A DNA stretch of 64,000 bases from Dicentrarchus labrax (Eukaryota), in the NCBI RefSeq assembly GCF_905237075.1, contig NW_026136706.1, positions 24,719,935 to 24,783,934 of the forward strand, read 5' to 3'. The translations under genes and the position numbers were made by a program. Below, piece after piece: positions 651-58,938 of this stretch (the stretch's first letter is position 1; every line of letters begins with the position of its first letter). Below the pieces are notes generated by a model that was not told the origin of the DNA, did not search any database, and saw only the letters and a list, made by a program, of their open reading frames with translations.

Positions 651-798
651 ACGACATGCCCAGTACCTTTCAGAACAGATTTATAAAGTGCTTTTAAGAC
701 AAGTAAAGGGAAATATTGCCAGATGTCAAGAAAAAATAAATCAGAGAACATGAAAATCAAAGTTCAAACTGACGTTAACTCATGAAAACCAGACTCAC

Positions 799-900
799 AG
801 TGGACACCGAGGCAGATGAGTCCAACCAGCAGGAGAACAGTGAACAGACCCAGACAGAAAACAACAGATCCATGAAATCTCCTCTCAGAGCTCCTGGGAC
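799..900 (-). CDS. C-type lectin receptor gene 1, exon 2: transmembrane segment GPRSSERRFHGSVVFCLGLFTVLLLVGLICLGVH. The gene continues leftward out of the window.
   Basis: 102 nt between a cag acceptor (RC 901-903) and a gtgagt donor (RC 793-798). It encodes a hydrophobic signal-anchor of about 23 aa. Confidence 0.7.
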
Positions 901-995
901 CTGAAAGATCAGTGAATACAGTCAAGTGTACAATATTAATAATGACAGATGATAATATACATCTATGCACAAACTCTCAGTCTGACTGGTTTTAC

Positions 996-1065
996 CTGTC
1001 TGATTTGCTGAAGGTCTTGGGTCAATGGGTTTGTCATATTCAACATTGGCATAGATCTCCTCCAT
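996..1065 (-). CDS. C-type lectin receptor gene 1, exon 1: cytoplasmic tail MEEIYANVEYDKPIDPRPSANQT, phase-1 donor
   Basis: The reverse complement gives ATG at 1065-1063, 70 nt, with a gtaaa donor (RC at 991-995). It is paralogous to exon 1 of the other four modules. Confidence 0.7.
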
Positions 1066-1844
1066 TGCTCATAAAGTCACCAACGATTTCCTACAGTCAG
1101 CTCTGCAGCACGGCTCCAGCACAGCAGAACGATGAGAGCTTCAATTTCTCTGCAACTTTTGAGGAAGTCACAAGTTTCAGAGGTGATGAAAATAGTTTGT
1201 ACAACCACCAACTGATCCTTGATCTGTTCAATGGCAGTCACATGAACAGATACTGTACATAAGTGTAAAGAAAAAATGAGAAGTGGTAAACCACCCTTTC
1301 TATCTTCAGACAGCATATTGTTCAAGTTAAGCTAAATCTTGTCAAAGCACACCTACTGCACACACAGTTCCAGGTATTTATTTTGCTTTTCTTTTGGATG
1401 TTTGAAAAAAATTGGTAAGAATGGACCAACACATAATATAAATGTCTCTATTACATTTGCTTGTTGTTACTTCAGGTTAACACAACTAGCGATAGATGCT
1501 AAAACATGCTAACCTAGTGACAGAAAGTGATGGAATCCAAGTGATGAAATGGATTTAACATGATGTCCTGTTAATATTGATCTACAAATAGGGATGTGCT
1601 GATTCCACTGACAGTTTATAACGGAGCTAGTTATCTTTTTCCCCCAGTTACTTTCCATTTGTTTTATTTTATTTTATTTGGTTTGTTGTTTGATTTGCTT
1701 TGGGCCAAGCTGATCCTCACAGTAAATACACTGTGCATCCGGAAAGCATTCACAGCGTTTCAATTTTCCCACATTTTGTTATGTTATAGCCTTGTTCCAA
1801 AATGGATTAAATTCCCTCAAAATTCCATGTATCCCTGACTGCAC

Positions 1845-1960
1845 ACGTAGGCACATGGAAAGGCAAGGAGCTCCCAGAAACAGAGCCATACCGTCAAATG
1901 TAACACATGCTTTGGAAATAAAGTTCTTTTGACAAAAGTGGTCCTGGCTGAATGACTCTG
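1845..1960 (+). repeat. Partial copy of the 440-bp dispersed repeat
   Basis: Matches 530-640 and 19880-19985. Confidence 0.6.
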
Positions 1961-2339
1961 TAGTCAGATTCCACTAGTATGAGAGAAAACAAGTCTTTAC
2001 AACGAAGATTGTAGCAGATAATTGATGGTTTCCAAAGTGAGGAGAAAGGATTGCGCATGCGTCTTTTCACATTTACACCTTTTCAACTTCTGCCAGCGTG
2101 TAGCTAGTTAGCAGTCCTGTTAGCTGACTGTACCTGGACTGGGAGCTCGAAGGACAGGGGGAGTTACTAGTAGGAGTGGAGCGGGGGGACCTAGCAGGGA
2201 ATACTGCCGGAATGTGCCAGCTGATTTTCTAATGGCTCCAAACAGGACTATTATGACTCCATCGGGAAAAACATGGGCAGATTCAGACAGTGATAGTGGA
2301 GGAATGAAACAGAGGAAGAGGAGCGAGTTATCATATCGA

Positions 2340-2440
2340 TAAGCCGTGAACAAGATTTGTGTGATGTTATACTGTCCTGAGATAACTTATAGCGCTATAC
2401 AAATAAAATTGAATTGAATTGAATTATACTGTGTTGAAAT
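2340..2440 (+). repeat. Interspersed repeat fragment with a (TTGAA)n tail, inverted relative to 1..105
   Basis: Reads ...gataacttatagcgctatacaaataaaattgaattgaattgaatt. Confidence 0.4.
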
Positions 2441-3241
2441 TAATGAATGAAATGTTCGGCCTCCTTGCTGCTTGTTCTGACACATTCAGGTTTATTACTG
2501 CTTTTTCTGCGAGCATTTAACAGGCAGCCGTTAAAATCTATATTTTAAATAATTAAATTAATATCACAAACGTGCTGCGACTAGTTGACTCAGAATATCT
2601 TCAGTCAGGGGCAGCCCTAGCAGATTTTGTGTGTTGTGGATCATCATCTAGAGATTCAGCATCTCACCTAATATTTCTGAGTGATGTGTGCACAACTAAT
2701 TTATTTTGGATATTGAATATTAAAACAATGAAGGACTTGTTCACAGATTTCTTACAAATCATCCTTATGGGGATATGAACAAGACACAGCTAGTGCGGCT
2801 AAGAATACAGTACAGGTCAATGCAACTATTTGCTCTCTGGTGTTTGAGCCTAGTTCAGCCGTATATGATGACATGCCTTTCATTCAGCTTCCCTATATCT
2901 GCCACCAAAACAGTTTGGTAAATGTTCCAATGTCTTCACTCAACCATCCTTTGCATGATGAAATTGTACCAACTTAAACTGATGAAACGTTCAATTATTT
3001 ATGCCACATTACATTGCTTTACACTCAAACATCTTTACCCCTTCCAAGATGTCTTTCTTCAGCTTGTCCATGTCAACAGAGGGGGCGTGTTTTTTCTTCA
3101 GCAGCACCTTCACCATGTGCTTCTTCATCTTGCGTTCTTCTATGCACAGGACAGGGAGGGTTAAATGTGCTCAATGTGCTGCACTGAGTGTATATTCTTC
3201 TTATGTCTTGGTATCCCTATGTATCTTGTATCTATGTGTGT

Positions 3242-12352: not shown

Positions 12353-14399
12353 TAGGAGTTTAAAGACCGACAGGTTAGTATGTGAAAGATAACACGACCA
12401 CGTTCGTGCCCTTAAATAAGTAAAATTAGTAGGCTATGGTTTATTTTGTGAGAAGTCACTATTTTGCACCACCGTAGTTTAACGAGGCTATCTAGAGAAA
12501 TAGTAGGCTAACTATGGGCATTATCCTCATGGCTAACCAATAGCCTGCCTACGGCTAATTCAACATCTCTGAAAACGCAACTTTCACAGATAATGTTAAT
12601 AATTTGCAAGCTGCTAAAATAAAGCATACAAAACATCAGCTAAAATAATCTATAGGCTATATGATTATAATCAGAGCATGTGCATGTTTGTCAGTGATTT
12701 ATTTCTATTGGGTTATTACAGCATTGAAAGAGCACAGACCTACGCAAAGGAGGAGTATTTGTGAAACGCCTTGTAAGAAATTATGGACTCAAATATAAAG
12801 TTAACCATCAAAGAAATCAGACGTTGAAGTACAGGAAACATTAGCCTATATTAATCCATATATCACAGCTTAAATAACATTAGGTTAACTCATTATTTCC
12901 TATTATTAATTATGGTAATGTTATGGTTAAGTAAATGTTAGCAGTTATCACTATAACCACTGCATATAGAGATGCTAAGTTAGTCACAAGTTATTGTTAC
13001 TATCACACATAAACTATTTAGGTCCTCTGTTATGACAAATGTATCACCATCATATTTTAAATATTTCCATTTTCTTCTGCTACAGAAGTCTGGAGCCACG
13101 GGCTCAATGGCGAGTTTTCTCCTCTGAAAGGAAAGGTTGCGCAACTGACAGAATAAGTTACAATATCTGAGATACTGCTGCTAAATTTTATTTGCTTTTT
13201 TTCAAAGTTCAGAATAAAGATATAGTTATGTTTTCTCTTATGGTTCTTATGATAACCGAGATAATGCTGCTAAATTTATAATTTTTTTACCTTGAATGTT
13301 GAATGTTCATTGCTCTAATTTATTTTTTATATTTTGATATTTCATATTTTGTTCAAATGTTTAATATATCTGCTGTTCATATGTTCATTCATTAAAATCT
13401 TGTCCCGGTTTTAAAATAAAGCACAGCAATGATATTTGAGAGTGTTTCTCCCTTTTCAGGAAAAGTATCGAAAACAATAATTTTGGTATCGTGACAACAC
13501 TTATCACATGTCAACAACAGTTCATGAACACAGAAAGACCTGCACACAAGAACATAATAAATTAAGAAACCGCTGTTTTTTTATAGTAGGACTTGAAACT
13601 ACTGAAACACACATACTGTTCATTAGTGAAGCAGTGTTATCATTTTGATCACTAAGATAAACTCAGTGCATCCCTCGGTCCACTCAACATATTTCCTCTT
13701 AAAAGCATGAAAGCAACAAGAAATGATAATACTGATCTGAGAAAATGAGCTGCAGAGTTTTGAGCTTTAAAATATTCTTTTGAGGATCGTGCCAAAGCAA
13801 CTAAGAAATACTGAAACCCTATCAGTGCTGACAGTGTCTGAATTTTTTTTCGTTGTCTTGCTTGAACCAAAGTTTAGTTGCCAGGCTTTTAATAGCCTTA
13901 CATCAAACTTACTTCTGTTGCCAGGTGTCATTTGTAAGTAGAAAAATGAGCAGCATTATATAAGGTTTCCCCAAAACATCCTTTCCTTATGCAGAGTAGT
14001 TGCGTAAGACCAGAATTTAAGATTGGGCATTAACAGAAAGAAAACTGCTTTATCACTTTGAATGTAATTTTATTTTAGCTCACCAGTACTGCCAACTAAA
14101 GGAAGCACTTTTAAATTAATTTAAATTTAAATTGCACAATTATTTTTAAATTGAGTATACCAGCAGTCAGAACAGTCTAGCATTGTGGACATTGGTTTAA
14201 GTTTTTCTGTCGTATAAACATTACCAGTGTGAGCATTTTCACAAATGTAAAGCTCGCTCTCAGACGCTTCCTAAGAAATAACATATTTTGACTTCCTGTT
14301 TCAAGTGAGATAACAGGCGATTATCTCAGAAATTGTTTTTAGCAACTTTGAGGTGTAACTTCCTTTACTTAAAAGAAAACTGAACCCAGCTTCAGTTTT

Positions 14400-14472
14400 A
14401 TCATTAATGTGTGAAGAGTAGCTTGTGCTGCAGAGCTGACCCACAGCAGAACATTTGGCACTCTTATGAGCG
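14400..14472 (+). promoter_or_regulatory. Conserved promoter-proximal/5' UTR block upstream of the lectin ATG, containing TGCTGCAGAGCTGAC at 14426..14440
   Basis: The same 15-mer sits about 30-40 bp upstream of the ATG in all five lectin 5' modules: 52897-52911 (+) and, as reverse complement, near 1100, 36355 and 58975. Confidence 0.4.
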
Positions 14473-14542
14473 ATGGAGGAAATCTATGAGAATGATAAAT
14501 ATGACGACTGTGCTGACTTAAGAGCATCAAAGAATCAGAGAG
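14473..14542 (+). CDS. C-type lectin receptor gene 2, exon 1: cytoplasmic tail MEEIYENDKYDDCADLRASKNQR
   Basis: ATG at 14473, 70 nt, gtaag donor at 14543. Confidence 0.8.
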
Positions 14543-14662
14543 GTAAGAATAATGATTCATACAGAGAGGCTGACAGACTGAGCTCTGCAGAAATGTGTAT
14601 TATTACCTGTCATTAATGCTGTTGTATCATTTACTGTATTCACTGGTCTTTTCTGTGTTCAG

Positions 14663-14764
14663 GTCCCAGGAGCTCAGAGAGGAGATTTCATGGATCTGTG
14701 GTTCTCTGTCTGGGTCTGCTCACTGTTCTCCTGCTGGTTGGACTCATCCGTCTCGGTGTCCACT
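14663..14764 (+). CDS. Gene 2, exon 2: transmembrane signal-anchor GPRSSERRFHGSVVLCLGLLTVLLLVGLIRLGVH
   Basis: cag acceptor at 14660-62, gtgagt donor at 14765, 102 nt, phase 1 at both ends. Confidence 0.8.
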
Positions 14765-15097
14765 GTGAGTCTTAATAACATTCGGAGGTTAAACTATCTT
14801 GCCTCAATTTTCTCATTTACATTATGTTACTTTGAAGCAGTTGTCTTGTCAGTATTTTGTGAATGCACACAGAAAAAATCAAACCCAAAAAGCCAAATCA
14901 ATCATTTGAAATGTCTCATTACATTTTGGTGCCATGCTCAAATTGAGTTTTGTGATTTTATCATCATTCCAGCATTTATCCAGTATCAACTAATTTCCTT
15001 TTTTAACAGGAGTATCATTTTTAAGACACAACAGCAGTGGCATGTTGTATCTGACAGCTATCTGGTGTTTCAGAGAAGTGTCTGTTGTTTATTTCAG

Positions 15098-15268
15098 ACC
15101 ATGTCTCCGCTCAGCGTTCAGCTGCAGAACTCTCCTCTATCAAAGCCAACCTGACTGAGCGTCTTCAGGCCAGAGACAACAAGTCCTGTTCCCTGACTGA
15201 AGAGAGAGACCTGCTGAATGCCAGAATCACTGAAATGACTCAAGAGCTGGAAAGGCTGACTGGTTTGG
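15098..15268 (+). CDS. Gene 2, exon 3: coiled-coil neck YHVSAQRSAAELSSIKANLTERLQARDNKSCSLTEERDLLNARITEMTQELERLTGL
   Basis: tttcag acceptor, gtgagt donor at 15269, heptad-like L/I spacing, 171 nt. Confidence 0.75.
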
Positions 15269-15304
15269 GTGAGTCCTTGTCTATAGAATCTAGATTCACT
15301 TGTT

Positions 15305-15440
15305 GTCTGTCTTAAAAGAGAGGGGTAGGGTAGGATGAGGTGAATGGAAGAAGGGAAAGAAAGGGAGGGTGGGTCCAGAAAACTGAAGCAAAGGAAGGAA
15401 GGAGTTGACCAGGTATAAGAAGGTTGCCAGGTGATAAGGA
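15305..15440. repeat. Purine-rich repeat; second copy at 50600..50770
   Basis: gggtagggtaggatgaggtgaatgga..gaaagaaagggagggtgggtc.agaaaact is shared between the two loci. Confidence 0.6.
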
Positions 15441-15563
15441 GTGGTTGAGGCGTGGCCCTGCACCTGAAAATCACATTCATTTCACTGAAAAAGCTGATAA
15501 CTTCACAAATACATTGACACAAGTCTTGTTGGTCTGTAATGTGTCTGTATGTTTATCTTACAG

Positions 15564-15706
15564 TGAAAACCTGTCCTGAAGGATGGAAGATGTTTAATAA
15601 CACATGTTATCTCCTCTCCAATGAGTCTGGTACCTGGGATAAAGCCAGAGAGGACTGCAGAAACAGAGGAGCAGATCTGGTGGTGATAAACAGCGATGAA
15701 GAGGAG
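15564..15706 (+). CDS. Gene 2, exon 4: CTLD part 1, VKTCPEGWKMFNNTCYLLSNESGTWDKAREDCRNRGADLVVINSDEEE
   Basis: tcttacag acceptor and gtac donor, followed directly by a (GT)n run. Contains the long-form cysteines C0/C0' and C1. Confidence 0.8.
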
Positions 15707-15709
15707 GTA

Positions 15710-15714
<5 letters not shown>

Positions 15715-15760
<46 letters not shown>
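15715..15760. repeat. (GT)n microsatellite in gene 2 intron 4, immediately after the donor
   Basis: About 22 GT units. The same placement is seen in gene B, where (CA)n lies at 31283-31320 on the + strand. Confidence 0.9.
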
Positions 15761-16083
15761 ATATACAAACACTGTTATGTTTTAGTTGTTGTTGGAGATG
15801 GGCTGATGAGATAGGAAAGCTGGTTATGGCAGAGGGAAGTTGGAATGGAGGATGGCAGAGCAGTGTGGCCAAAAAGGGAGAGAGGGTGAGCTGCAGGGAG
15901 ACCAGGATCCTGAGACACAAGGAAACTGAATACTAAACACATGAAGTGAGTTGCCAGTGAGAGTAGCTACCACTGAAGTAAAACAAAACGATGTGGCTGT
16001 GTGTAGAGCTGAGGTTGAAGTAGTGCAAACTGATGAGCTGATGAGAGGCAGGTGAGCTCAGTGGGAGTGCTGATGAGCTATTG

Positions 16084-16084
16084 C

Positions 16085-16125
<41 letters not shown>
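16084..16125. repeat. (CAGA)n microsatellite
   Basis: cagacagacagacagaca... Confidence 0.9.
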
Positions 16126-16126
<1 letters not shown>

Positions 16127-16378
16127 CACTGAGATCACAGGGAAGAATGCACAGATATAACCATGACACACAACGAAAAACCCCACAACAATTATTCTGT
16201 ATCACTGTGGGCAAGATGACAAAAAACATCAAGATGTCTTTCTGGAAACAGATATTACCCATCTATACAGGATTTAATGAAACCTGTTATTTTTTCTTCT
16301 TCTAAGTGATATTTAGAATGATTAGGTTACGATCATTATTGCATAATAACATAATGTGGGTTTCTTTCTGTTGAAAAG

Positions 16379-16482
16379 ACGCTTCTCTCCAAGTTCATAC
16401 CCTACCGTGCTTGGATCGGTTTGACTGACAGAGAGGAGGAAGGGACCTGGAAATGGATAGATGGAACTCCACTGACTCTGAC
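16379..16482 (+). CDS. Gene 2, exon 5: CTLD part 2, TLLSKFIPYRAWIGLTDREEEGTWKWIDGTPLTLT
   Basis: aaaag acceptor, gtaagg donor at 16483, WIGL motif, 104 nt. Confidence 0.75.
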
Positions 16483-17324
16483 GTAAGGCTTCACTTTGGT
16501 TGAATATCAATATTAACTTATACAACTATCATTTTATATTACTATTACTATTATACAGTGATGTCACAGTTTTGGAAGGCACAGACAAATGATTCCATCC
16601 TACTGATAGGGAGTGTTAGAAAATGTGTGTCTCTAGAGGCCATGGACAAAAAATATAATTTGGAGGACTTGTTTCGTACATATACAAAGTGTTGATCGAT
16701 CTATTTATTTATTTTTGACATTTATTTACAAATAAATGACAAAATATGTTATTTGTTCTTCTGGGAAACAAACATCTTTGTTCACTGCAGTCGCTACAGG
16801 GCTTTGTCACTGTGGTGCACTTACTGAAACAACTGACTGTGTTCTCTTTAGCAAACACTTCAGCATACATTTCTCAGTCTTAAAGATGAAGGAGAGATTT
16901 TCCAATCTTTAAGGTGATTTGGACCCACTGTTACAGAAAAATGTGATTTGTCCACGACTGATGGATCTTGGTGAATAACAGTAGTTTAAGGGCTGAGTTC
17001 GCCTGGATCCAGTTCTGATGCTGATTCTCCTATGCTAGTAGTGTGAACAAACCTCCCTGTGTCTCTCTAGCTCCCAGTCCAGGTATATAGCGTTATAAGA
17101 GCTAAAACAAGTTCAATGTTGTTTTGTTTTTCCTGCCACTATCTGACGAATGAAAAGTGGTTCGACTAAGACTTTTCTCAGCGACTAATAGTTTAGTCAA
17201 CTATCAGTGGGCAGTCCTAGTCAGAGATACAACAGTGAAACCTACCAGCACCCAACTGTTTCTGGCTGTGAATGGGGAGTTTTATTGACTATAGTCAGGA
17301 TTTTCTCATTCTCTGACCCACTAG

Positions 17325-17475
17325 GTACTGGGCAAGAAATCAGCCTGATAATGGTGGTGGAAGCTCAAAGTGGGGTGAAGAGGACTGTGCACATATCAGC
17401 ACGGAGGATTTCAATCACTGGAATGATCGGTCCTGTGAAGATTCTGTGCAATGGATCTGTGAAAAAACAGCCTAA
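17325..17475 (+). CDS. Gene 2, exon 6: CTLD part 3, YWARNQPDNGGGSSKWGEEDCAHISTEDFNHWNDRSCEDSVQWICEKTA*
   Basis: ctag acceptor. QPD (galactose-type) and WND calcium/sugar-site motifs are present. TAA stop at 17473-75. Confidence 0.8.
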
Positions 17476-26942: not shown

Positions 26943-27084
26943 TTAAGCTGTTTTCTCGCAGACCCATGGCAAAGAAAGTTTACACGACCTGTCATTCCAT
27001 GTATTGTCGAATTTAATTGTATGTACACAGTCCTCTTCACCACCGTCTTGACTCCCATTACTAGGCTGACCTGTTGCCCAGTAC
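26943..27084 (-). CDS. C-type lectin receptor gene B, exon 6 (last): YWATGQPSNGSQDGGEEDCVHTIKFDNTWNDRSCKLSLPWVCEKTA*
   Basis: Reverse complement of 26943-27084. ctag acceptor (RC 27085-88). QPS instead of QPD. WND retained. Stop at 26943-45. Confidence 0.75.
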
Positions 27085-27897
27085 CTAGGAGGTTAGAAAA
27101 CGAGAGAATCGTGACACTGTTTATCTCTGACATGAACACAGCCCTTAAACAGCTTCATCACCAAGATCCATCAGCCCTGGACAAACCACATTTGTTTCTG
27201 AAACAGTGGGTTCAATATAATCTTAAAGATTGGAAAATATGTCCTCCATCTTTAAAGTGACTCATTTGTAGTGTTTTCTAAAGAGACTGTACTCTCTATT
27301 ATGTTTATGTTCAAGTGGCTGTAGTAAATGAGGAAGTCAGCTGAGGTCTTTATAGAGCAGCAAAGTCTGCAAAGGGAGGACGTCGGGGTGATTGGTTGTT
27401 AAGTCCTTGTTGAGTCATTGAGCAAATTCCATTTCCTCATATATAATTAATTCTAATTAAGTGTGATATTCATTGCAGACATGATGGTAGCAGTATGCTA
27501 CTGCAGATTTTACATGAAAGATGCAATACAACTCATCTCCTCCATATAGCCTTAATATCTGGCTTTATTTTACCTATCCATCTAAAAGCTAAATACAGAT
27601 GGACTATTGGACCTAACATTCATCTGGTGGACAGAATTAAGTCCAGATGTGTGTCTCCTGGATGTGTAAATAGGCAATTTTTGCCTTCTCCATTGCTATA
27701 AAATGGTTAAAGGTGATAATATGTCATGGCTCTGAGTTTAGCAGCTTATTGTGGAGTTATTCTGCCCCCATGTGGACAACAAATTAATCTGTACAGTTTT
27801 AAGATTTAACAAACTTCCATGAATGCACAGAATCAATTAAATTCTAGTAATATAAAATGATAGTTGATGTTGATATTAAACCAGAGTGAAGCCTTAC

Positions 27898-28001
27898 GTC
27901 AGAGTCAGTGGAGTTCCATCTATCCATTTCCAGGTCCCTTCCTCTCCTCTCTTAGTCAAACCAATCCAAGCATAGGTTTTGTAGAACTTTGAGACAAATG
28001 T
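27898..28001 (-). CDS. Gene B, exon 5: TFVSKFYKTYAWIGLTKRGEEGTWKWIDGTPLTLT
   Basis: aacag acceptor (RC 28002-04), gtaagg donor (RC 27893-97), 104 nt. Matches gene 2 exon 5 over WIGLT..EEGTWKWIDGTPLTLT. Confidence 0.75.
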
Positions 28002-28280
28002 CTGTTAACAAAAAAGAAACTCACATTATATTTACACAATATATATACACACATTAAAATGATTACTGTAACCTAACCATTACAATGAAATATTACCTAG
28101 AAGAAGAAACAAATAGAGGGTATAGAGGGTGTCTGTTACCAGAAAGACACCTTGATGTTGTCCACAGTGAGACAGTCATTGTTGTAGCTGGGTTTTATGT
28201 TGAGGTTTAGATTAGATTAGAAAACATACAGTACAAAAGTGTACAGTGATGTTTAGGAGTGAGTATGTAATTCACAGATG

Positions 28281-28520
28281 AGGCGGCTGTGGCTCAGAGG
28301 CAGAGTGGGTCGTTCCCTAATTGGAAGGTTGTGGGTTCAACCCCCGGCTCCTGGTGCCACGCATAGGTGTGTGAAGTTTCTATTCGATGGACTTTGCCGT
28401 GAATGTGGCACGTAGTGTAAAAGCGCTTTGAGTGGTCGGAAGACTAGAAAGGCACTATACAAGCACAGGTCCATTTACCATCCATCACTTTATCAGTGAC
28501 GGCTGGTGGTCATTTTGGGT
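28281..28520 (+). mobile_element. tRNA-derived SINE with a Deu-domain (Deu-SINE family), in gene B intron 4
   Basis: The tRNA-like head is ggctgtggctcagaggcagagtgggtcg...gggttcaacccccggc (box A/B-like). It is followed by gtaaaagcgctttgagtggtcggaagactagaaaggcactatacaagcacaggtccatttaccat, which matches the conserved Deu-domain core. Confidence 0.75.
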
Positions 28521-28799
28521 GGGTGGGCTAACAAATGTATTACACTCATCAATACTTCACACAGCATCAACAGCAGCAACAGTAGCATCACATCAAGTCA
28601 CAGCAACAACACTGGGGAGACATATCCAAAAGAATGGCTCTCTCTCTCTCTCCTCTGTACACATCAGCACATGTCAATTGCGCTACAACAACATTATAGA
28701 AAAGTACCAGCAACATTTTGTAACACCATGTACCAGAAATAAATCTATAACACCAAAGCAAAAATAATTATTTGTAGACGAGAGAGTTGTTTCAGAGCT

Positions 28800-30800
28800 T
28801 GGGCATACCTTATTTAAAAAGCAGCTCTCATCGACGGCGTTTCTGTGATGCAAATAGGTTATTCACCATGTCATTAAAGCCTGCTGATTTTTTGATGAAG
28901 TCCCGCTCAATGGACAGCATAGCCAGTTTGTTTAGCCTGTCCTGTCTCATTGTACTTCTAAGAAAGGATTTGATCCTTTTCAGTGTACTGAAACACCTCT
29001 CTGACTCTGCAGATGATGGGGGTTGTGATGGCTATGTGGGTTACTTTCAGTGTTTCAGAAAAAGTGCTCTATGGATTGTTCATTGTCACTCTCAAAAGTG
29101 AGATTGCAGACATTAGGTCTGCAAACTTCACACTGCTGTACATGACCATCAGTTTATCCCTGCAGATCACTGGGTAATGAGCACATGCAATGTCCAGCTA
29201 CTTCTGCAGGAAAGTGTTCTTAAACAGTGGAAAGATTTCAGGGTCAATATGTTTGAAAGACACCAAGTGCCTGGCTTTCTTATTATGTGGCCATTATGTG
29301 ACAGCACTGTGCGGCCATTATGTGACAGCACTGTGCGGCTTTTGACACATTATCAGACCACCGCATCCTGCGCGGCGTTGCAGCGGCCGCAGCTGTGTCC
29401 ATGTCTGGATGTGGCTGATTGTCATCTGTGGTCAGAAGTTCAGATATGGAGGATGAAAAATTCTTCAGGGCCTGTCTCGTTTTGAGAGACTCTGTGATCT
29501 GTTTCTGAAGAATGCTGTAGAGAATATCTACATGCATGAGGGCAGAGTGGGAAGAAGATAAAAAGAAAAGAAAGCTGAGGTCCCCCAGAAATGCGGACAG
29601 GTTGTCCCAAGACTAATCATCCTGTACTTTTTCAAAACACTGTTTCAAAGTGTCCTGATGTTCAAACATGGTGTGGCTGGTACAGCTTGTAAAGTTCCAC
29701 CTTCTTTGTCCTGACGCTGGCATCCTCCTGCCACACACTTCATCTAGGACTGCCGTTGTCTTGGGGGACTTGGAGAAAAACATTTGCAAAAAATATTCTG
29801 ACGGCTGTGTGAGATGAGCAGGCCTGTTGCATGATGAGGTTTAACTGGTGGGCATAGCAGTGCATAAAGTGTGCGTGAGGGAGTGTGTCCTTTAACCTGG
29901 CCTTTAGGCTGGATGATGCACCGCTCATTACAGCTGCCCCGCCATATGTCATATGTGCGATCAGTTTGTTCTCCAACGTATATGGCTGTAGCTTCTCCAG
30001 CAGCAGTGTTTCGAGTCCCGCTGCAGTTCTATCAACTAACAGGGAGAAAGTGAGGAATCTTTCCACCACCATGGTGGCTTCAATGACGTACCTGAACACA
30101 ATCACACACTGGCTTACACAGGTCACATCTGCAATATTTCATCTGCCAGTTTTTGTTCATAAATCTCTAACATACAGTCAAGCAACTCATTTTGGCTGGT
30201 CTTAGATGTGTACTTGGCAACCTGTCTAAAAAAGAGAACCGGTTGACGAGGTCCAGAAACACAGATTCATCGGACCCCTGCAGGGCAACCTTGTGTCCCC
30301 CACAAAATGTAATACAGTCTACAATCTGTGAAAGTGAATGACTGTTTTTCTTTACCAGCTCGTTGTGTCTCTGTACAGCGGCCCTCATTAAGCTGACAGG
30401 TGATGTTCACTTTAACCAGCAATGACAACTTTACTCTATTTCCAATGTGGCTTGTGTTTCATGTTTTCTAATTTTGTCAGATAAATGCTTCAAATCCACA
30501 ATTCCTTGTTGGGTCCAAACCGTGTCTCCTCCAAAAAGCAAACATGGGAAAAAGTGAACTGAATCACAGAAAAGTGAATTCCTAGCTACACTTGCCAGTC
30601 CTTTCCTTAAAACCACGTAACACAAAAGTTAAGATTTTGTCGTTTGTGTTATTTGAATGTCTTTTGGATGATGTGTCCCAAATCTCTTCACTTCCAATTT
30701 TCCCTCCAAAGACATTAAAGAAAGTAAATAATCCACCTCGTTCATGTTCATGCGAACGCCCGCCATTACTACAGTTGCTCACTTCCCCCTCTCCACGTTC
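28800..30800 (-). pseudogene. hAT-superfamily transposase pseudogene with multiple frameshifts (ZBED/Charlie-like); copy 1, inside gene B intron 4
   Basis: Minus-strand ORF fragments at 30431..30625, 30167..30388 and 29740..30126 contain ..MTYGGAAVMSG...HFMHCYAHQLNL.., the hAT C-x-A-H-x-L-N-L block. The C-terminal RC of 28800-28900 gives KLAMLSIERDFIKKSAGFNDMVNNLFASQKRRR*, which is hAT-dimerisation-domain-like. It is paralogous to 62505-64000. Confidence 0.7.
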
Positions 30801-31282
30801 TACTACAAACTAGCCTCACTGTAGCCTCATGCAGTGGCTACTGCGCTGGGATTGGTCGAAAGTCGCTGTACTGTAGCTACTGCGCTGTGATTGGTCGAAG
30901 GTTACTGGCCTTTGGGCTGAATGAATTTAGCCCAAATGGCCAATAAATCAAGGGGGAGTGTCACGACACCTGTCAATCCAAATTGAATGGAAGCGTACGC
31001 TACTGTGCTTGGGCTGTAAGAAATAAGTCCATTCAAAGGAAAAACCCAGGATATATCATATATCCTTTTTTCTGTCACTGTTTGGTGCTGCTGCTGCTCT
31101 AGGTTCCACCAATATTTAAAACAATATGTTCTAAGGTTTTTAATAATAGTTTTTCATCTTTATTGTAAAAGACAGGGGGGGCTTAGCCCTGATATGGAGA
31201 ATCTAACCCAGACCTTATTGATTTATTACAATCTATCTATTGAGATTTTTTTTGTATGAATTTCAATATTAACAAAATCGTG

Positions 31283-31283
31283 C

Positions 31284-31320
<37 letters not shown>
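31283..31320. repeat. (CA)n microsatellite abutting the gene B exon 4 donor
   Basis: cacacacacacaca... Confidence 0.9.
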
Positions 31321-31321
<1 letters not shown>

Positions 31322-31326
31322 TGTAC

Positions 31327-31469
31327 CTGCTCTTCGTCACTGTTTATCACCGCTAGATCTGCTCCTCTGTTTCTGCAGTCCTCTCTGGCTTTATCCCAGG
31401 TACCAGACTCAGTGGAGAAGAGATAAGAGCGGTCCTTAAACATCTTCCATCCTTCAGGATAGGTTTTTA
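31327..31469 (-). CDS. Gene B, exon 4: LKTYPEGWKMFKDRSYLFSTESGTWDKAREDCRNRGADLAVINSDEEQ. Both C0 and C0' cysteines are replaced (C to Y, C to S).
   Basis: The reverse complement reads AAA ACC TAT CCT GAA GGA TGG ... CGC TCT TAT CTC. Acceptor tcttacag, donor gtac followed by (GT)n, as in gene 2. Confidence 0.8.
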
Positions 31470-31772
31470 CTGTAAGATAAACATACAGAGACATCACAGA
31501 CCAACAAGACTCATGTAAATATTTGTGAAGTTATCTCTGTAGATGTCATTTTCAGTGAATGACCTTTCAATGCCCCTCAATATATGTTCATTTGGTTGGT
31601 GATTTTTTTGCCGATATAAGAGGATTTACTGTCACAATGTAGCGGTGTGCAGAGATAGAGGCCACAGTTGTACCAGTGGTCCATAATAATATACTGTTTA
31701 ATTTAGTTGTGATTAATGAAAGGTTACATTTGAAAGCCTGAAACTGGCTTCTCATAAAATAGATAGATAAAA

Positions 31773-32684
31773 TTAATGCTGTCAGTTAAACGCGTTATTA
31801 ATGGCGTTAACGCAAACCCATTTTAACGGCGTTCTTTTTTTTATCGCAAGATTAACGTTCTTTTTGACCTAGCACACTTTGTAGTTTTTTTCACATGCTG
31901 TTGCAACAACTAGTAACATTAGAAAAACTAAAACACCACACTGGATCTAGCTAGACCGGAAACAAAACAACAAGCATGCCGCACACACTTGTTTAAGAGT
32001 AGTAGACGTTACGTTTTGAGTGGATGGCGAGCGTGAGACGCCAAAATGGATGCTAATAATATTCTGAATGGAAAGTTTACTTTTAAAAAGTTGCCAAATG
32101 GTTCCATTGACAAGACCAAAGTGATCTGTGTGTTTTGTCGTTGTGAACTGAGCTATCATCGCAGCACGTCCAGTCTGAAATACCACTTGATGGCCAAGTA
32201 CACAGCTGATGCAAATTCTCCGCCCCTGGTCAATTAAGTATTAAGCCATGGTTTAACTGCACTATAGGCTGAGTCCTAGTTTACCTTACATGTGCACTTT
32301 GTAATTTTATTTTGTATCGCCCTGTGTTGATCCCTTAGAAAGGGCTGTTGAAGGGGCTGTTTGTGTGAAGTATTTTTTTCACCCTTTTATTGATGGACAG
32401 TGTTACATTGTGTGAGAGATTATTTGCTCCACGTGAGAATGTTAAGTTTGAACACTACAGTATATGCCAATGTTGTTTTCAATAAAAAAAAAAAACATTT
32501 GCACAAAGCAAGCCGATCCACTTTTCCATGTTGATAAGAGCATTAAAATGAGAAAAAATAATGGGACAAAAAGAAATCAAGGGACATTCAGAATAGATAA
32601 AAATGTGCGATTAATTGCGAGTTAACTATGACATTAATGCGATTAATCGCGATTCAATATTTTAATTGTTTGACAGCACTAATT
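31773..32684 (+). mobile_element. Non-autonomous hAT-like element (about 0.9 kb) in gene B intron 3, carrying a BED-finger mini-ORF
   Basis: The termini are aaTTAATGCTGTCAGttaaacgcg at 31771 and the reverse complement of cgcgattcaatattttaattgttTGACAGCACTAATTaa at 32684. Subterminal repeats ttaacgc/gcgttaa/attaatcgc are abundant. The TSD is not resolved. Confidence 0.55.
32046..32237 (+). CDS. 63-aa BED-type zinc-finger mini-ORF inside the hAT-N element
   Basis: MDANNILNGKFTFKKLPNGSIDKTKVICVFCRCELSYHRSTSSLKYHLMAKYTADANSPPLVN* with a C..C...(20)..H...H/C spacing typical of zf-BED. Confidence 0.5.
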   Translation: MDANNILNGKFTFKKLPNGSIDKTKVICVFCRCELSYHRSTSSLKYHLMAKYTADANSPPLVN

Positions 32685-32769
32685 AAAATATCTTACCACA
32701 ATGCAGGGTGACTTAATCACTAGATTTCTGAGTAGCAAGTGAATCTAAGCACTTCATGCAAGGACTCAC

Positions 32770-32949
32770 GCAGTTTGGACAAACTCTGAAGTCTTTCCAG
32801 CTCTTGAGTCATTTCAGTGATTCTGGCATTCAGCAGGTCTCTCTCTTCAGTCAGGGAAGAGGACTTGTTGTCACTGGCCTGAAGACGCTCAGTCAGGTTG
32901 GCTTTGATAGAGGAGAGTTCTGCAGCTGAACGCTGAGCGGAGACATGGT
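32770..32949 (-). CDS. Gene B, exon 3: neck YHVSAQRSAAELSSIKANLTERLQASDNKSSSLTEERDLLNARITEMTQELERLQSLSKL (3 codons longer than in gene 2)
   Basis: cag acceptor (RC 32950-52), gtgagt donor (RC 32764-69), 180 nt versus 171 nt in gene 2. Confidence 0.75.
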
Positions 32950-33597
32950 CTGAAATAAACAACAGACACTTCTCTGAAACACTAGATACCTACTGGAAGA
33001 TCACAAACATAAATCAGTGTGGCTTTCAGCAGTAAAGTTATGCCACTAAAATTACAATGAAAATATTTCAGTCAGACAACTCACGTTGAAATGTTTATTA
33101 TAGTACTATAGTCATTTAGATTTTGGCATCTAGGCTCCGACCCCACAGATATGTTTACATAGAGATATTGAGGAGTGATGAGCAAATATCTTAACCTCTA
33201 GCCGGAGCCTACAGGTGGATGCTGGGGTGGTGGTGGGGCTTACAGTGCAGCAGCAGCAATATGGATGCAGGGCAACAGCGGCATTGACAGAGCCGAGGGA
33301 GAGCTGGGGAATTGTGCAGTTTAAATAGACCGCCAGATAGGAAGGGTGTGCTTGGTTAGTGATTATGGAGTGAGGCATGTCATGTGTGTATAGCAGTGCA
33401 GCTGGAGTTAATGCCTGAACTAGCTGGCTTCGCTCCATATTATGCTTTAAACAAACAAAATATAAATGAGAAAATCGAAAGTAAATCAAACAAAAATTTT
33501 AAAAAGTGACTGAAAAGTGAGTGATTTTCAGTGAAGAATTATCCTTCTATAATCACAATCCAGCCTGACTTTAATCTCTGAATGTGATTTAGACTCA

Positions 33598-33699
33598 CAG
33601 TGGACACCGAGGCCGATGAGTCCAACCAGCAGGAGAACAGTGAGCAGACCCAGACAGAGAACAACAGATCCATGAAATCTCCTCTCTGAGCTCCTGGGA
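33598..33699 (-). CDS. Gene B, exon 2: transmembrane GPRSSERRFHGSVVLCLGLLTVLLLVGLIGLGVH
   Basis: 102 nt. Donor gtgagt (RC 33592-97), acceptor cag (RC 33700-02). Confidence 0.8.
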
Positions 33700-34229
33700 C
33701 CTGAACACAGAAAATGATACAACAGCATTAATGACAGGTAATTGTTGGGATCCAAGGATACCTTTAAACATGAACTTGTTCATTTGAAGTGTTTAACTGG
33801 ACCAAAAGGGAAATGTTGGAATATGGCCACATGTGTTTTACACAAAGGAAATGGTCTTTACTACAGTGGCCTGTATGTGAGTAATAAAGCCTGCTTGCAG
33901 TGAAAAGACAAAGAAAAAACGCCTGCCAGATAACAGACCTCACAGTGGGGGTCCAGGAATGCGGTCAAGTTGGGGCATAAGGGCAATAAACGACTTTCAT
34001 TAGTCAGATTCCCTCGGACCCCAGACCCGTCATCCCGGCTTTAAGCCAGAGAGACGCTCTTCTCTCTCTCTTCTCTTCTGGTGGTGTTTGTAGCGCCCCC
34101 TACAGGATTTTAAAAAAGCAGCCCCGGCGCCACGTTTCGCCGATATGTATGAAACTTGGTAGGCATGTGTAACGTGCCTGAGACGTACAAAAAAGCCTCT
34201 TGGACCCATGTCCCAAATCCCACAGGAAG

Positions 34230-34900
34230 TTGGCTATTTTAATTTTAAATTTTCACTCTTGGCGGCCATTTTGTGGTCATTTTCACTTTTTGGCTTGTAT
34301 TTGAACGAACTCCTCCTAGGGAATTTATCGGATCTGCTTCAAAATTGGTCAGTACAGTCAGAAAATGGTGCTGAATGAACGCTGCTCATTTTGTGACTGT
34401 ACGTTGAAGGGCGTGTCCGTTGTATGCCGTCAAAGTTGGCCATTTTGTATTTGAACTAACGATCTCCTAGAGAATTTATCAGATCTGCTTCAAAACTTGA
34501 AAGTATACTTGAATAATGTTGCTGATTAATAGTTGTGCGATTTGTGACTGTATGTTGAAGGGCGTGTCCGTGGTGTGTCGTCAAAGTTGGCCATTTTGAA
34601 TCGATTGTCTAAGTGTGATGTCATTTTTTGCACTTCAGGGCTTCTATTTAAACTAACTCCTCCTAGGGAGTTTATCGGATCTGCTTCAAAATTGGTCAGT
34701 ACAGTCAAAATATGGTTAATATGGTTAATAATAAATATGGTTACGCTGTTCAATTTGTAACTGTACATTGAAGGGCGTGTCTGTGGCGTGCTGTCAAAGT
34801 CGGCCACTGTGATGCCATTTCCGGCATTTCAGGGCCTCTATTTTAACTAACTCCTACAGATTTTATCATATTGACTTCATATTCCATCACTGCAATCTAG
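34230..34900. repeat. Tandem array of about 4 units of roughly 160-220 bp inside the intron-1 transposon
   Basis: Recurring blocks are ctcctagggaatttatcggatctgcttcaaaattggtcagtacagtc and gaagggcgtgtccgt.gt.tgccgtcaaagttggccattttg, at about 34300/34470/34660 and 34400/34560/34780. Confidence 0.7.
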
Positions 34901-35703
34901 ACACATTGTTGATCATAATTTAATCAAATATTTACTGTGCATCAAACTGTGTGTCCGTGGCATGGCGCTGCATTTCCACCTTTCTCAGTGAAGAGTCTCT
35001 CTATCAAAGCTCAAGTCTTTTGCAGTGTCTGAAACGCGTGACAACTTAGAGTGGTCTCCCTCAGCTTCTGGTGATCAGGGCTTCGGAGTGGGGTGACGAG
35101 AATGGTCCAATCTCAATGAAACTTCACGTGTTTGATAAGAGTCCTGCCCTGAACACGTCTACATGACAATATTCAGACATAGTGACAGTGCCACCTACTG
35201 GCAACAGGACCCCTGCATGGCAATTTTGAGCTGATTTACGTGAGATTTTCATGTCGTGGTCCGCACGTGTTACGACGGCATGTGACGCGGCCGCAGCACG
35301 CCCTGAGTTGCGTGGAGTGCGAGGTCCCGTCCATCGCTGCTTGCAGCTTTAATTACTGTTAAAGTTACTGATGTGTTTTATTCAGCTTATTGTATTGTGA
35401 TGTTGATGTTTGATTAACTTAGGTTACTATAGTAACTGTAGTCTTTCAGAGAGTGCTAAGGTGATGTTAGTTAAATGTTGTGCGTTACACAGACACCGTC
35501 TTTGCATGCAACTCCCTTTTAACAGCACCGTTAATCTACGATCACACACACACATATTCGGTCTAAATCTCAGCACACGGGGAGAGGGATTCAAACCCTC
35601 CTGCGTATTCATGCTCTTTGTCTCTCACCAACATGTGTTTCATACATTGAAACATCTGGTCAGAGGACAAAGGACACACACCCTTTTCGGGGCACAACTC
35701 TCA

Positions 35704-35704
35704 T

Positions 35705-35749
<45 letters not shown>

Positions 35750-35750
35750 C
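35704..35750. repeat. (CA)n microsatellite
   Basis: cacacacacacacacacacacacaaacacacacacacacac. Confidence 0.9.
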
Positions 35751-36256
35751 CTTTCCCCTCTAACTTAGTTCCTTTAAGTTAGATTGTATATAGTGTATTT
35801 TCCTCTGTTTGTTCTATTATATCTCTTTAATAAATGTTTGTGTTTATATATGCTGGCCTATTCAATTTCAAGAGTGAGTGATACCAACCTCTTCTATGTA
35901 GAACTCCAAAAGCTCCCACTTTAGCTATTAATAATGGTTATTGGTTGTAGACAATTGGTTGTAATTATTAATTTAATAATTAATCTGACTTCTGAATTAA
36001 TAGTTTAGTGTATTTTTATGAGACTGATCAATCAATTGTTGGTTATCGTTTCCCTTATTTAAGGGTGGTGCCCCGAGGAACTTTAATATTAATTAAAGTC
36101 ATTTTCTATTATCTTTTGATAATTTTAAATTTTGATAACCATTAATTGATTAAACTAATACAGTTAGACCACTTTAACGACGCTGGAGCCCAACATAATA
36201 ATACACATCTGCAGAGCTCAGTCTGTCAGCCTCTCTGTCTGGATCATTATTCTTAC

Positions 36257-36326
36257 CTTTCTGATTCTGGGATGCTCTTAAGTCAGCAAAGTTGTCATGT
36301 TTAACATTTGCATAGATTTCCTCCAT
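36257..36326 (-). CDS. Gene B, exon 1: MEEIYANVKHDNFADLRASQNQK
   Basis: ATG as RC of 36324-26, gtaaga donor (RC 36251-56), 70 nt. Confidence 0.75.

Positions 36327-54141: not shown

Positions 54142-54186
<45 letters not shown>
54118..54186. repeat. (GA)n microsatellite
   Basis: gagagagagag... interrupted. Confidence 0.9.
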
Positions 54187-54187
<1 letters not shown>

Positions 54188-54700: not shown

Positions 54701-54860
54701 TTTTTTTTTTTAAAAAAAAAAAAAAAATAAAATTTTTTTAAAAAAAAAAAAAAAAAAAAAATTTTAAACCTTATTTTTTTTTTTTAAAAAATTTAGAAAA
54801 TAATTTGGGGTTTTTTAAGTAAGGATTTTAAAAACCCCTCCCAAAAACTTAAAATTTTCC
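54690..54860. other. Alternating long A and T homopolymer runs (low-complexity block)
   Basis: tttttttttttaaaaaaaaaaaaaaataaaattttttttaaaaaaaaaaaaaaaaaaaaaatttt... This is not a natural microsatellite pattern. It is a possible assembly or polishing artefact, or a degraded poly-A tail. Confidence 0.5.
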
Positions 54861-56379: not shown

Positions 56380-56640
56380 ATTCAGATTTTTTAATTTTTT
56401 CCCAGATGTTATTGAACCAATCCTTTTATATAGAAGTAAAGTTTGGGGCCCATTAATTAAACAAGAGCACTGGGACTCAAAGCCAATTGAAAAAGTACAT
56501 CTGGAGTTCTGTAAAAATATACTGAGAGTCCACAGAAACTGTCCAAACCATAGCTGCAGAGCAGAGCTGGGGCAGTTCCCTCCATTAATTAAAAAAAACA
56601 TAAAATGACATTTTGGAACCATATGATAGAATCTGGTTTA
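56380..56640 (+). mobile_element. LINE reverse-transcriptase C-terminal fragment
   Basis: Translates to PDVIEPILLYRSKVWGPLIKQEHWDSKPIEKVHLEFCKNILRVHRNCPNHSCRAELGQFPPLI, the L..GSE.WG ... E..HL.FCK.ILGV ... ELGR.PL signature seen in fish LINE ORF2. Confidence 0.55.
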
Positions 56641-57059
56641 TACAGACACAGATCATACATACAGCACCAAAGCAATCTGAGCCCAGATAAAATACTTGGT
56701 ATGAACCAAAAAAGGACATTATATTCATATGCCACAGTGATGCTATGGAAATAATCCCCTACTCATAAGTAAAACAAATTGACAATAAACTAAGATATTT
56801 CAAGCAGAAAGGTAAGGTGAAACCAAAGACCAATGAGTCAAATTTATCAAAATTCAGCATTTTTGAATTTCCTGATAAAATACAGTTCACTAACAAAGAC
56901 CACGCCATCGGATGTATGAAATAAGAAAAGTCTATTGCACATAATGAATGAATGTGAACCGATTTGGTATACTGAGGGATGAGGACACTTTTCAAATAGA
57001 GCAGGTCTAGACCGAACTCTTTATAACATTATTTACAGAGACCCAACAGTACCACCATG

Positions 57060-57165
57060 AGCAAGCACTTGGTGACAAGGGCAAGGAAAAACTGCCTGTT
57101 AAAAGCCAGAAACCTAGGACAGATCCTTCGGCTCTAGGTGGGTGGTTGTCTGTCTCGACCAGTTG

Positions 57166-57224
<59 letters not shown>

Positions 57225-57250
57225 ACACACAGACAGACAGACAGACAGCA
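57060..57250 (+). repeat. Interspersed repeat with a (GA)n(GACA)n tail, same family as 24140..24300
   Basis: See 24140..24300. The (GA)n(GACA)n tail lies at 57166-57248. Confidence 0.6.
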
Positions 57251-58670
57251 ATTTTACTATAATGTCATGTAATAAAGAATCTTTGAATATTGAATCTTTG
57301 AATATTGAATCTTTGCTTTGTGTGCTTTTTGTACGTCTTACAGGTGCAGTGAGGAAAAATCGCATGACAGACAAAGCCACTGTACGGAGCCTCTAAAGGG
57401 ACATGGGGAAAAAAATGAAACGTTTCTAGTGCGCACTAGATATGGATCCGGTGTTGTGGCGAATCAACACATGGCTAATTTTAATATTCAAATGAGTATT
57501 AAACTAATTTGTCTGTAACTAAAAATGAGTTTGAATTTGTCAAGAAATCAGATTAATGAGTCAGTTTGTTAAAAATAATTTAAAAAAAATACATAATACA
57601 GAGCATTGTATTAAAAAAAACATAAATTCATTTAAATCACTTGTTTTACACAAACTTCTTGCAGTGACTGAGTTCATTATTTGGGTTAATTGTACAGCTT
57701 TGTATATAAAATGAAATAGCCACGACAGATTGATCTTTCCTTCTCTGACTGTTACTGCTACTTGCAAGCCATAGCTATAAAAAGAAACGGTGTATGGGTG
57801 TCACTGTGGACGGACACTGCCATCACATCATCTTGGGTCAACCAGATCAGGAATATCCAGCTTATCTGGATCTTTCTGGCCAAACTGGTTCAGGAAGACC
57901 ACCATCTTAATGAAGCAGCAGGTCAGGATGAAGGACATGCTTTTGTCTTTGTGGGAGAGTCTGTGGAGCAACTCTTTGAAGTTGTCTGTGGCAAAATTTT
58001 GCAACTCTGTTGCCATTATTTTATAATGCTCCTTTTTTAGTAACCTGGTGTCCGGCATAGGACTACAGTCAAGAGGTGAAAGCCACTATTGTGGAGTGTA
58101 CTCCAACATGCAAATCAGCATGCATGAACTCATTAACACTAGCATGGGCTTCAAATTCATCCAGAAGTGGAGTTTTGGACGCAGTAAAAGTCCATATGGG
58201 TGTTTTCAAGGACATCTTTATTGTGTTGCTACAACTGTCCGCTCTGTTGATGTAAAAAATGGTGACATTATTCTGGGATTTTCTTACTGGGACTCTATTG
58301 CTGCTCTATGAAAGGAAGATGCCAGGGGTGCCAAATGTGGCACAGTGGGACGAGACAATTAAACAGTTTTTTGTTCATTTTTGCTGCTCTAGCTGCTTGA
58401 ATGTGACTTTTTACCATGGGTGGAAAAATTCATGGTTCGTACAAAATATATTCTTATGATGTCAGTGTTGCTTCTGTGATGCTTTTCAAAACAGACAAAG
58501 TGCTATAAAGACAATGAGTAAAGGAAAAATACATCACAGAAAAGCCAGGATGGCAAATAGACATTTTGGTAAAACAAGCAGCTTTAGAGCAGAACAAAGC
58601 TCCTAAATGCTCCAATGCTCCTAAAAAAACACAATTCAAACTGAAGTTAACTCATTAAAACCAGACTCAC

Positions 58671-58772
58671 AGTGCACACTGAGGGCGATGAGTCCAACCA
58701 GCAGGAGAACAGTGAACAGCCCCAGACAGAGAACAACAGATCCATGAAATCTCCTCTCAGAGCTCGTGGGAC
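58671..58772 (-). CDS. Lectin 5' module 4, exon 2: GPTSSERRFHGSVVLCLGLFTVLLLVGLIALSVH (transmembrane). No downstream exons were found before 53240.
   Basis: 102 nt. gtgagt donor (RC 58665-70), cag acceptor. Confidence 0.7.
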
Positions 58773-58871
58773 CTGAAAGATCAGTGAATACAGTCAAGTG
58801 TACAATATTAATAATGACAGATGATAATATGTATCTGTGCACAACCTCTCAGTCTGACTGAACGGTCTTAC

Positions 58872-58938
58872 CTGTCTGATTTGCTAAAGGTCTTGGGTCG
58901 ACGGGTTTATATTCAACTTTGACATAGATCTCCTCCAT
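58872..58938 (-). CDS. Lectin 5' module 4, exon 1: MEEIYVKVEYKPVDPRPLANQT
   Basis: ATG as RC of 58936-38, gtaag donor (RC 58867-71), 67 nt, phase 1. The upstream sequence is of the gene-1 class. Confidence 0.7.

Follow-up and report, generated by a model that had tools for sequence, protein, structure and literature searches.

Two complete type-II C-type lectin receptor genes and three further 5′ modules in a 64-kb window of the Dicentrarchus labrax genome

Genes and 5′ modules at the locus

The stretch of DNA considered here (hereafter the window) comprises 64,000 nucleotides of the sea bass Dicentrarchus labrax genome (RefSeq assembly GCF_905237075.1, contig NW_026136706.1, positions 24,719,935 to 24,783,934) and carries genes for type-II transmembrane receptors built on a CTLD (C-type lectin-like domain). 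A preliminary description, made from the letters alone, had proposed that five copies of a two-exon 5′ module are distributed over this stretch and that only two of them, placed tail-to-tail, belong to complete genes. Both genes, designated gene 2 and gene B, splice into open reading frames (ORFs) of 741 nt with GT/AG at all junctions:

14473..17475, plus strand: gene 2, exons 14473-14542, 14663-14764, 15098-15268, 15564-15706, 16379-16482 and 17325-17475
26943..36326, minus strand: gene B, exons 36326-36257, 33700-33599, 32949-32770, 31469-31327, 28001-27898 and 27084-26943

They are convergent, with stop codons 9.5 kb apart and a Tc1 element in between, and thus the ends and the mutual orientation proposed beforehand are reproduced. 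The products coincide with two RefSeq entries from Dicentrarchus labrax: that of gene 2 (246 aa) matches "CD209 antigen-like protein E" (XP_051259628.1) with 100% identity, and that of gene B matches "CD209 antigen-like protein C isoform X1" (XP_051259625.1) without a difference. The two entries differ from one another in about 20% of residues, and their source agrees with the teleost origin assumed beforehand. The layout is common to the two genes and includes six exons encoding the tail, the signal-anchor, the neck (exon 3, ~57-60 aa) and a CTLD divided between three exons (143 and 104 nt in both genes, then 151 nt in gene 2 or 142 nt in gene B), in agreement with the three-exon CTLD organization assumed in the preliminary description. 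Intron 2 is longer in gene B (649 bp) than in gene 2 (333 bp). RefSeq annotation already covers the two genes, and DC-SIGN-like clusters have been known to be expanded in teleosts since 2004.

When the whole window was scanned for the module motifs in six frames, exactly five exon-1 units (MEEIY) and exactly five exon-2 units ((R/T)SSERRFHG) were obtained, which combine into the following modules, two of them being the 5′ ends of the complete genes:

Module 1, minus strand, subtype A: exon 1 1065-996 (70 nt), exon 2 900-799 (102 nt), located by motif scan and extraction
Module 2, plus strand, subtype B, 5′ end of gene 2: exon 1 14473-14542 (70 nt), exon 2 14663-14764 (102 nt)
Module 3, minus strand, subtype B, 5′ end of gene B: exon 1 36326-36257 (70 nt), exon 2 33700-33599 (102 nt)
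Module 4, plus strand, subtype B, orphan: exon 1 52944-53013 (70 nt), exon 2 53134-53235 (102 nt)
Module 5, minus strand, subtype A, orphan: exon 1 58938-58872 (67 nt), exon 2 58772-58671 (102 nt)

The scan places all five modules where they had been predicted, and all but one of the earlier coordinates stand as given, exon 2 of module 3 ending at 33599 instead of 33598. Extraction likewise returned, for all five copies, an exon 1 of 67-70 nt with a phase-1 donor (GTAAGA or GTAAAA) and an exon 2 of 102 nt, which is preceded by a pyrimidine tract ending in CAG and followed by the donor GTGAGT. The start context TGAGC(A/G)ATGG and an open frame are common to all copies; in module 1, exon 1 and exon 2 encode MEEIYANVEYDKPIDPRPSANQTG and PRSSERRFHGSVVFCLGLFTVLLLVGLICLGVH, respectively. 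The exon-2 product contains, again in each of the five, a hydrophobic 19-mer with a Kyte-Doolittle mean of 2.7-3.0 (residues 35-54) and the basic patch RSSERR on its N-terminal side, a combination implying a signal-anchor with the N terminus left inside the cell. Since tblastn of the modules yields E values from 1e-10 to 1e-14, their resemblance by chance is excluded.

Similarity of the modules is not confined to exons. Alignment of the five regions, with block limits taken from self-BLAST, delineated a conserved block directly upstream of each start codon:

14349..14472, plus strand: conserved upstream block of gene 2
1066-1270, minus strand: its equivalent at module 1
36327-36448, minus strand: its equivalent at module 3 (gene B)
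52822-52943, plus strand: its equivalent at module 4
58939-59141, minus strand: its equivalent at module 5

The block contains an invariant ACTTCCT approximately 100 bp before the ATG and GTGCTGCAGAGCT approximately 40 bp before it; the GGAA core suggests a candidate promoter element of ETS/PU.1 type.

Domain family, sequence motifs and known relatives

Attribution of the two products to type-II transmembrane C-type lectins, as had been proposed, is supported by the match of Pfam Lectin_C (PF00059) to residues 137-244 of gene 2 (E 2.1e-23) along with the signal-anchor hydropathy and the six-exon structure given above. All group II features tested, namely a type-II signal-anchor, a single C-terminal CTLD, its three-exon organization, six Cys and sugar motifs, are found in gene 2, the CTLD of which has the six Cys of the long form, QPD together with WND, and an acidic residue in GEEDC. 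Judged by these motifs, the carbohydrate-recognition domain (CRD) of gene 2 is a classical galactose-type long form. Gene B does not possess the six-Cys long form: both N-terminal Cys are replaced (C to Y in KTYPEGW and C to S in DRSYL), four Cys are left, and the sugar motif, composed of QPS and WND, is non-canonical if compared to EPN or QPD. Ligand specificities of the two receptors, or the Ca2+ dependence of gene B, probably differ.

The nearest solved single-domain CRDs are those of CL-P1, CLEC4F, DC-SIGN, MGL/CLEC10A, ASGR2, Mincle and ASGR1, all with E values between 1e-25 and 1e-20, and this similarity of scores makes the group II subgroup clear, while no single mammalian ortholog stands out. 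Thus, the earlier label "CD209/CLEC4/ASGR-type" is acceptable as a statement of subgroup resemblance and not of orthology, given that the match to DC-SIGN is no greater than that to CL-P1, CLEC4F, MGL or ASGR2.

In the cytoplasmic tail, the opening MEEIY-x-x-V is present in gene B and in modules 1 and 5, and Y-E/R-N-D stands instead in gene 2 and module 4. The first form, EEIY-x-x-V, can be read as a putative Yxxφ or hemITAM-like pattern following two acidic residues, a pattern lost in gene 2 and module 4. The subtype A tail has the form MEEIY(A/V)(N/K)VEY(D)KP(I/V)DPRP…NQTG, conserved across percomorph fishes, and that of subtype B continues as …DDCADLRAS(K/Q)NQ(R/K)G.

The closest known system is that of Fugu, in which the DC-SIGN-like subgroup has been tandemly duplicated into a cluster of four genes, DC-SIGN-F2 to F5, and no identifiable tetrapod orthologs were found for this fish subgroup (Zelensky and Gready, 2004; PMC514892). 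There as here, receptors consisting of a type-II transmembrane segment, a neck and a single CTLD form clusters by tandem duplication, and the sea bass locus is a counterpart of the Fugu-type cluster; convergent instead of head-to-tail orientation of the intact genes and the presence of three detached 5′ modules distinguish it without making a difference in kind. The DC-SIGN gene of large yellow croaker also contains six exons (PMC4691118), which is the layout of gene 2 and gene B.

The sea bass locus has the domain order, the three-exon CTLD and the local multigene arrangement in common with the CD209/SIGNR and CLEC4 clusters of mammals. Inactive or partial copies and alternatively spliced isoforms belong to the known content of mouse Cd209a-g and human CD209/CLEC4M loci. 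Compared with mammalian DC-SIGN, the sea bass neck is short (57-60 aa) and devoid of the 23-aa tandem repeats; compared with mammalian CD209, gene 2 contains QPD rather than EPN, and orthology is not established, similarity to PDB entries being about equal for CL-P1, CLEC4F, DC-SIGN, MGL and ASGR. By QPD...WND, the acidic residue of GEEDC (Gal/GalNAc-type) and the N-terminal tail containing Tyr, gene 2 resembles ASGR1/2 and MGL (CLEC10A), and one of the sea bass paralogs bears the RefSeq name "hepatic lectin-like". Gene B departs from ASGR/MGL in having QPS and in lacking the first disulfide, specificity in these comparisons being read from motifs. A more remote parallel is provided by the Ly49/KLR clusters of natural killer receptors, where partial copies and pseudogenes lie among intact paralogs in repeat-rich DNA and mosaic, conversion-like patterns are seen. 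Their CTLDs are of group V instead of group II and represent another lineage, so the likeness is one of gene fragments and mosaic paralogs.

Orphan modules, mosaic paralogs and their origin

Both self-BLAST and alignment divide the modules into subtype A (modules 1 and 5) and subtype B (modules 2, 3 and 4), separated by indels in exon 1 and intron 1. The stretch held in common extends from ~125-205 bp upstream of the ATG over both exons and intron 1 to ~30-250 bp of intron 2, with unrelated flanks on its outside, so that the homology blocks, 74-93% identical between copies, measure only 445-531 bp. By self-BLAST, module 4 is 93.5% identical to 14349-14793 of gene 2, and modules 5 and 1 agree at 88% of positions along 531 bp; in the latter pair identity is even, 93-95%, across promoter, exons and intron.

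Two side observations concern the modules as such. Between modules 2 and 4, 10 of 172 exon sites differ against 1 of 120 in intron 1 (Fisher p=0.03), and the changed codons, six non-synonymous and two synonymous, form clusters at residues 6-9 of the tail, adjoining Tyr5, and within the transmembrane segment. Selection or patchy conversion is weakly hinted at by these counts, on which we place no weight. Annotated family proteins of Anoplopoma fimbria (P0112) and Mastacembelus armatus (P0024) contain two consecutive exon-1-like or exon-2-like peptides; accordingly, duplicated 5′ modules seem to be common in such clusters of percomorph fishes and to enter gene models at times.

Searching for the missing 3′ parts was entirely negative. 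With 122 family proteins as tblastn queries (E<1e-3), no neck or CTLD exon of this family was found in the window outside gene 2 and gene B, and a permissive tblastn with gene 2 (E<10, word size 2) added no further one. Downstream of module 4, no family exon occurs on the plus strand over 53289-64000, and its alignment with intron 2 of gene B ends ~75 bp past exon 2. Module 5 is followed by ~5.3 kb of AT-rich, repeat-derived sequence without neck or CTLD matches between 53300 and 58625, and the next family exon on the minus strand is exon 1 of gene B itself, 22 kb away. Decayed neck or CTLD exons were likewise absent between modules 4 and 5 and in 1-798, both in the permissive search and with the 122 family queries. 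For modules 4 and 5, the earlier claim of 5′ modules with nothing behind them is therefore borne out, and the lack of any detectable decayed remnants indicates that their 3′ parts did not erode but were lost through partial duplication or internal deletion. Homology of both to the intact genes ceases ~75-250 bp into intron 2. Each of the two is a truncated copy, presumably non-functional, in which exons 1 and 2 with the intron between them are left together with the promoter block.

A second line of evidence comes from comparison of the complete genes with each other. Their DNA identity by self-BLAST changes sharply along the gene:

Promoter/exon 1: 90%
Neck exon region: 97.5%
CTLD exon 1: 91%
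CTLD exons 2-3 and flanking introns: 72-80%

The synonymous distance dS (Nei-Gojobori) behaves correspondingly, rising from 0.07-0.20 over exons 1-5 to 0.92 for CTLD exon 3, which encodes the sugar-binding loop. Among five sea bass paralogs, protein identity ranges from 76 to 97% in the transmembrane exon and from 41 to 81% in CTLD exon 3, the most divergent part. This exon-wise contrast implies that the 5′ parts have been homogenized or recently exchanged, while the ligand-binding exon has a much older and separate ancestry. Such a mosaic is typically left by gene conversion or unequal crossing-over in families evolving by birth and death. The five paralogs reside on one contig of 30.47 Mb, with RefSeq accessions within a run of twelve (XP_051259618 to XP_051259629), which agrees with the local expansion and contraction of the family assumed in the preliminary description.

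Taken together, we interpret the window as a part of a cluster of group II (DC-SIGN/CLEC4/ASGR-like) type-II lectin receptors evolving by birth and death, and assign to this reading a probability of about 0.9. Modules 1, 4 and 5 are then three 5′ gene fragments that have so far been unannotated. Several observations limit this reading or weigh against it. The count of two complete genes is valid within the window, and module 1, 798 bp from its left edge, may belong to a complete gene lying beyond. Of these 798 bp, 421 (214-634) are a repeat 92% identical to 19566-19979, and no neck exon was found in 1-798. A homolog search with the 57-aa module 1 peptide returned a single partial Scomber protein and was too insensitive to reveal sea bass proteins starting with module 1 or module 5. 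In all three modules the frames are still open, the splice sites canonical and the upstream block conserved, and sequence cannot prove them dead; for 172 coding nucleotides at 5-7% divergence, intact frames are expected by chance too. Finally, RefSeq isoform X2 of gene B (XP_051259626.1) is the same as gene B from exon 2 on and begins with another exon 1, MEEIYVTDEYDDCADLRASQNQRG, for which the window has no coding sequence, and the model thus splices at least one remote 5′ exon to exon 2 of gene B.

Isoform X2 is also an argument for the best surviving alternative, according to which the orphan modules are working alternative promoters and first exons joined by long-distance splicing to a complete gene's body, as from module 5, or from a module past 64000, to gene B. 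The detached modules would in that case be live cassettes of promoter, tail and transmembrane segment, spliceable onto a distant common neck/CTLD body in the way X2 is modelled, a view to which we give little credence. The exon 1 of X2 has to be located past 64000, over 27 kb upstream on the minus strand. Phases are the same in all modules, so that joining from whichever exon-1 or exon-2 donor would preserve the frame; the upstream block is kept in orphan copies; the divergence between modules 2 and 4 is greater in exons than in the intron, with 6 of 8 changed codons non-synonymous; and the doubled exon-1- or exon-2-like peptides in gene models of other fishes would fit as well. Nevertheless, exact look-ups of module 5 exons 1 and 2 joined to the gene B body, and of module 5 exon 1 joined to module 3 exon 2 and the gene B body, gave no such annotated protein. 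Module 4 is on the strand opposite to gene B with no family exon downstream, the uniform 93-95% identity of modules 1 and 5 looks neutral, and X2 itself may be an artefact, either of Gnomon read-through or of cross-mapping between exon-1 copies that are nearly identical, the exon 1 of paralog XP_051259618.1 being one residue different from its own. Long-distance use of the orphan modules is therefore quite improbable.

Still less can be said for modules 4 and 5 being the starts of complete genes, with the other exons located beyond the window or separated from them by introns of great length. The window does extend just 10.8 kb downstream of module 4, and the growth of gene B intron 1 from 120 bp to 2.6 kb demonstrates that insertions of transposable elements (TEs) can inflate introns of this family. 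Yet intron 2 occupies only 333 and 649 bp in the complete genes, homology of module 4 to it stops after ~75 bp, and a gene starting from module 4 would have to pass through module 5 on the opposite strand. For module 5, the next same-strand family exons are exons 1 and 2 of gene B itself. Mis-assembly, whether through haplotigs that were expanded or collapsed or through wrong joining of a single gene, which the preliminary description had raised against itself, is hardly credible: the A/T stretch at ~54680-54860 between modules 4 and 5 looks poorly resolved, but the copies are 74-93% identical over only 445-531 bp and then pass into unrelated flanks without the near-identity (>98%) through flanks typical of haplotigs, indels in exon 1 and intron 1 set the two subtypes apart, and both full genes correspond to separate RefSeq proteins with ~20% of residues different. 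Birth and death within a local cluster, with modules 4 and 5 as its probable relics, accordingly remains our preferred reading of the locus.

Repeat surroundings and significance of the locus

That the receptor genes are embedded in TE-rich DNA, as expected beforehand, is shown by elements of Tc1/Sleeping Beauty, Ty3/gypsy and hAT-like types, and the main repeats and repeat-associated features are as follows:

24861-25901 (346 aa), 48248-48931 and 3486-3929: transposase ORFs of Tc1/Sleeping Beauty type
24477-26124, plus strand: Tc1/Sleeping Beauty-type element of 1.65 kb between the 3′ ends of the lectin genes, with inverted ends of ~225 bp that are 96% identical
47806-49375, minus strand: second Tc1 copy, 92.6% identical to 24477-26124, longest transposase ORF 227 aa
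~43377-46486, plus strand: interior of a Ty3/gypsy long terminal repeat retrotransposon encoding gag with a zinc knuckle, aspartyl protease, reverse transcriptase, RNase H and a chromodomain, the frame being broken into four ORFs
28930-30689 and 62504-64000: repeats in common, 28930-30049 being 87% identical to 62504-63584 (self-BLAST)
33744..36195, minus strand: DNA-transposon-like insertion of ~2.45 kb with terminal inverted repeats TGTTGGG...CCCAACA and a 3-4 bp target duplication ((A)TTA)
29964..30035, minus strand: terminal coding exon of gene B isoform X3, ending in …LIELQRDSKHCCWRSYSHIRWRTN before the stop, inside the intron-4 repeat (peptide located, with a tblastn match)

The element at 24477-26124 contains an uninterrupted 346-aa transposase ORF with HTH_SB, HTH_Tnp_Tc3_2 and DDE_3 domains and, on these grounds, may be autonomous. 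Comparison of intron ends attributes the length of gene B intron 1 (2,556 bp against 120 bp in module 2) to the ~2.45-kb insertion, which is the only clean TE signature; ends of the module blocks were viewed in alignments, with no dedicated search for terminal repeats or target duplications there. Capture of the 5′ module by a TE was considered from these block ends and was not adopted. A different contribution of repeats is seen in isoform X3 (XP_051259627.1), a 189-aa product which ends within the CTLD and is devoid of two-thirds of this domain; its terminal exon is, by its position within the repeat, a case of TE exonization.

Apart from the receptor family, an isolated single-exon CTLD ORF is found at 4523-4900 on the minus strand (Pfam Lectin_C, E 2.6e-12), belonging to another family, that of the small soluble CTLD proteins of teleosts, and 72% identical to a sea bass UniProt entry (P0124). 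It is devoid of the "GL" of WIGL, has a frameshift before the last Cys, adjoins a Tc1 fragment and is probably a pseudogene. The UniProt entry itself looks chimeric, its first half matching CTLD exon 1 of gene B type. The low-complexity stretch at 54680-54860, between modules 4 and 5, consists of long alternating A and T runs (…TTTTTTTTTTTAAAAAAAAAAAAAAAATAAAATTTTTTT…) and may represent a poly-A tail region that has degenerated, or else sequence poorly resolved in the assembly. No RNA family was detected in the window by Rfam scan at gathering thresholds, and no tRNA by ARAGORN.

If the orphan modules did serve as alternative first exons, one sugar-binding domain would be displayed with different cytoplasmic tails, having or lacking EEIY-x-x-V, and the locus would become moderately interesting as an innate lectin with variable first exons; otherwise it would not. 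Beyond annotation the locus matters little, and the use of the present analysis is mostly descriptive, consisting in the 5′ fragments, the exon-level mosaic and the paralogs that differ at the tail Tyr motif and at QPD/QPS. These points could guide work on pathogen recognition in farmed sea bass.

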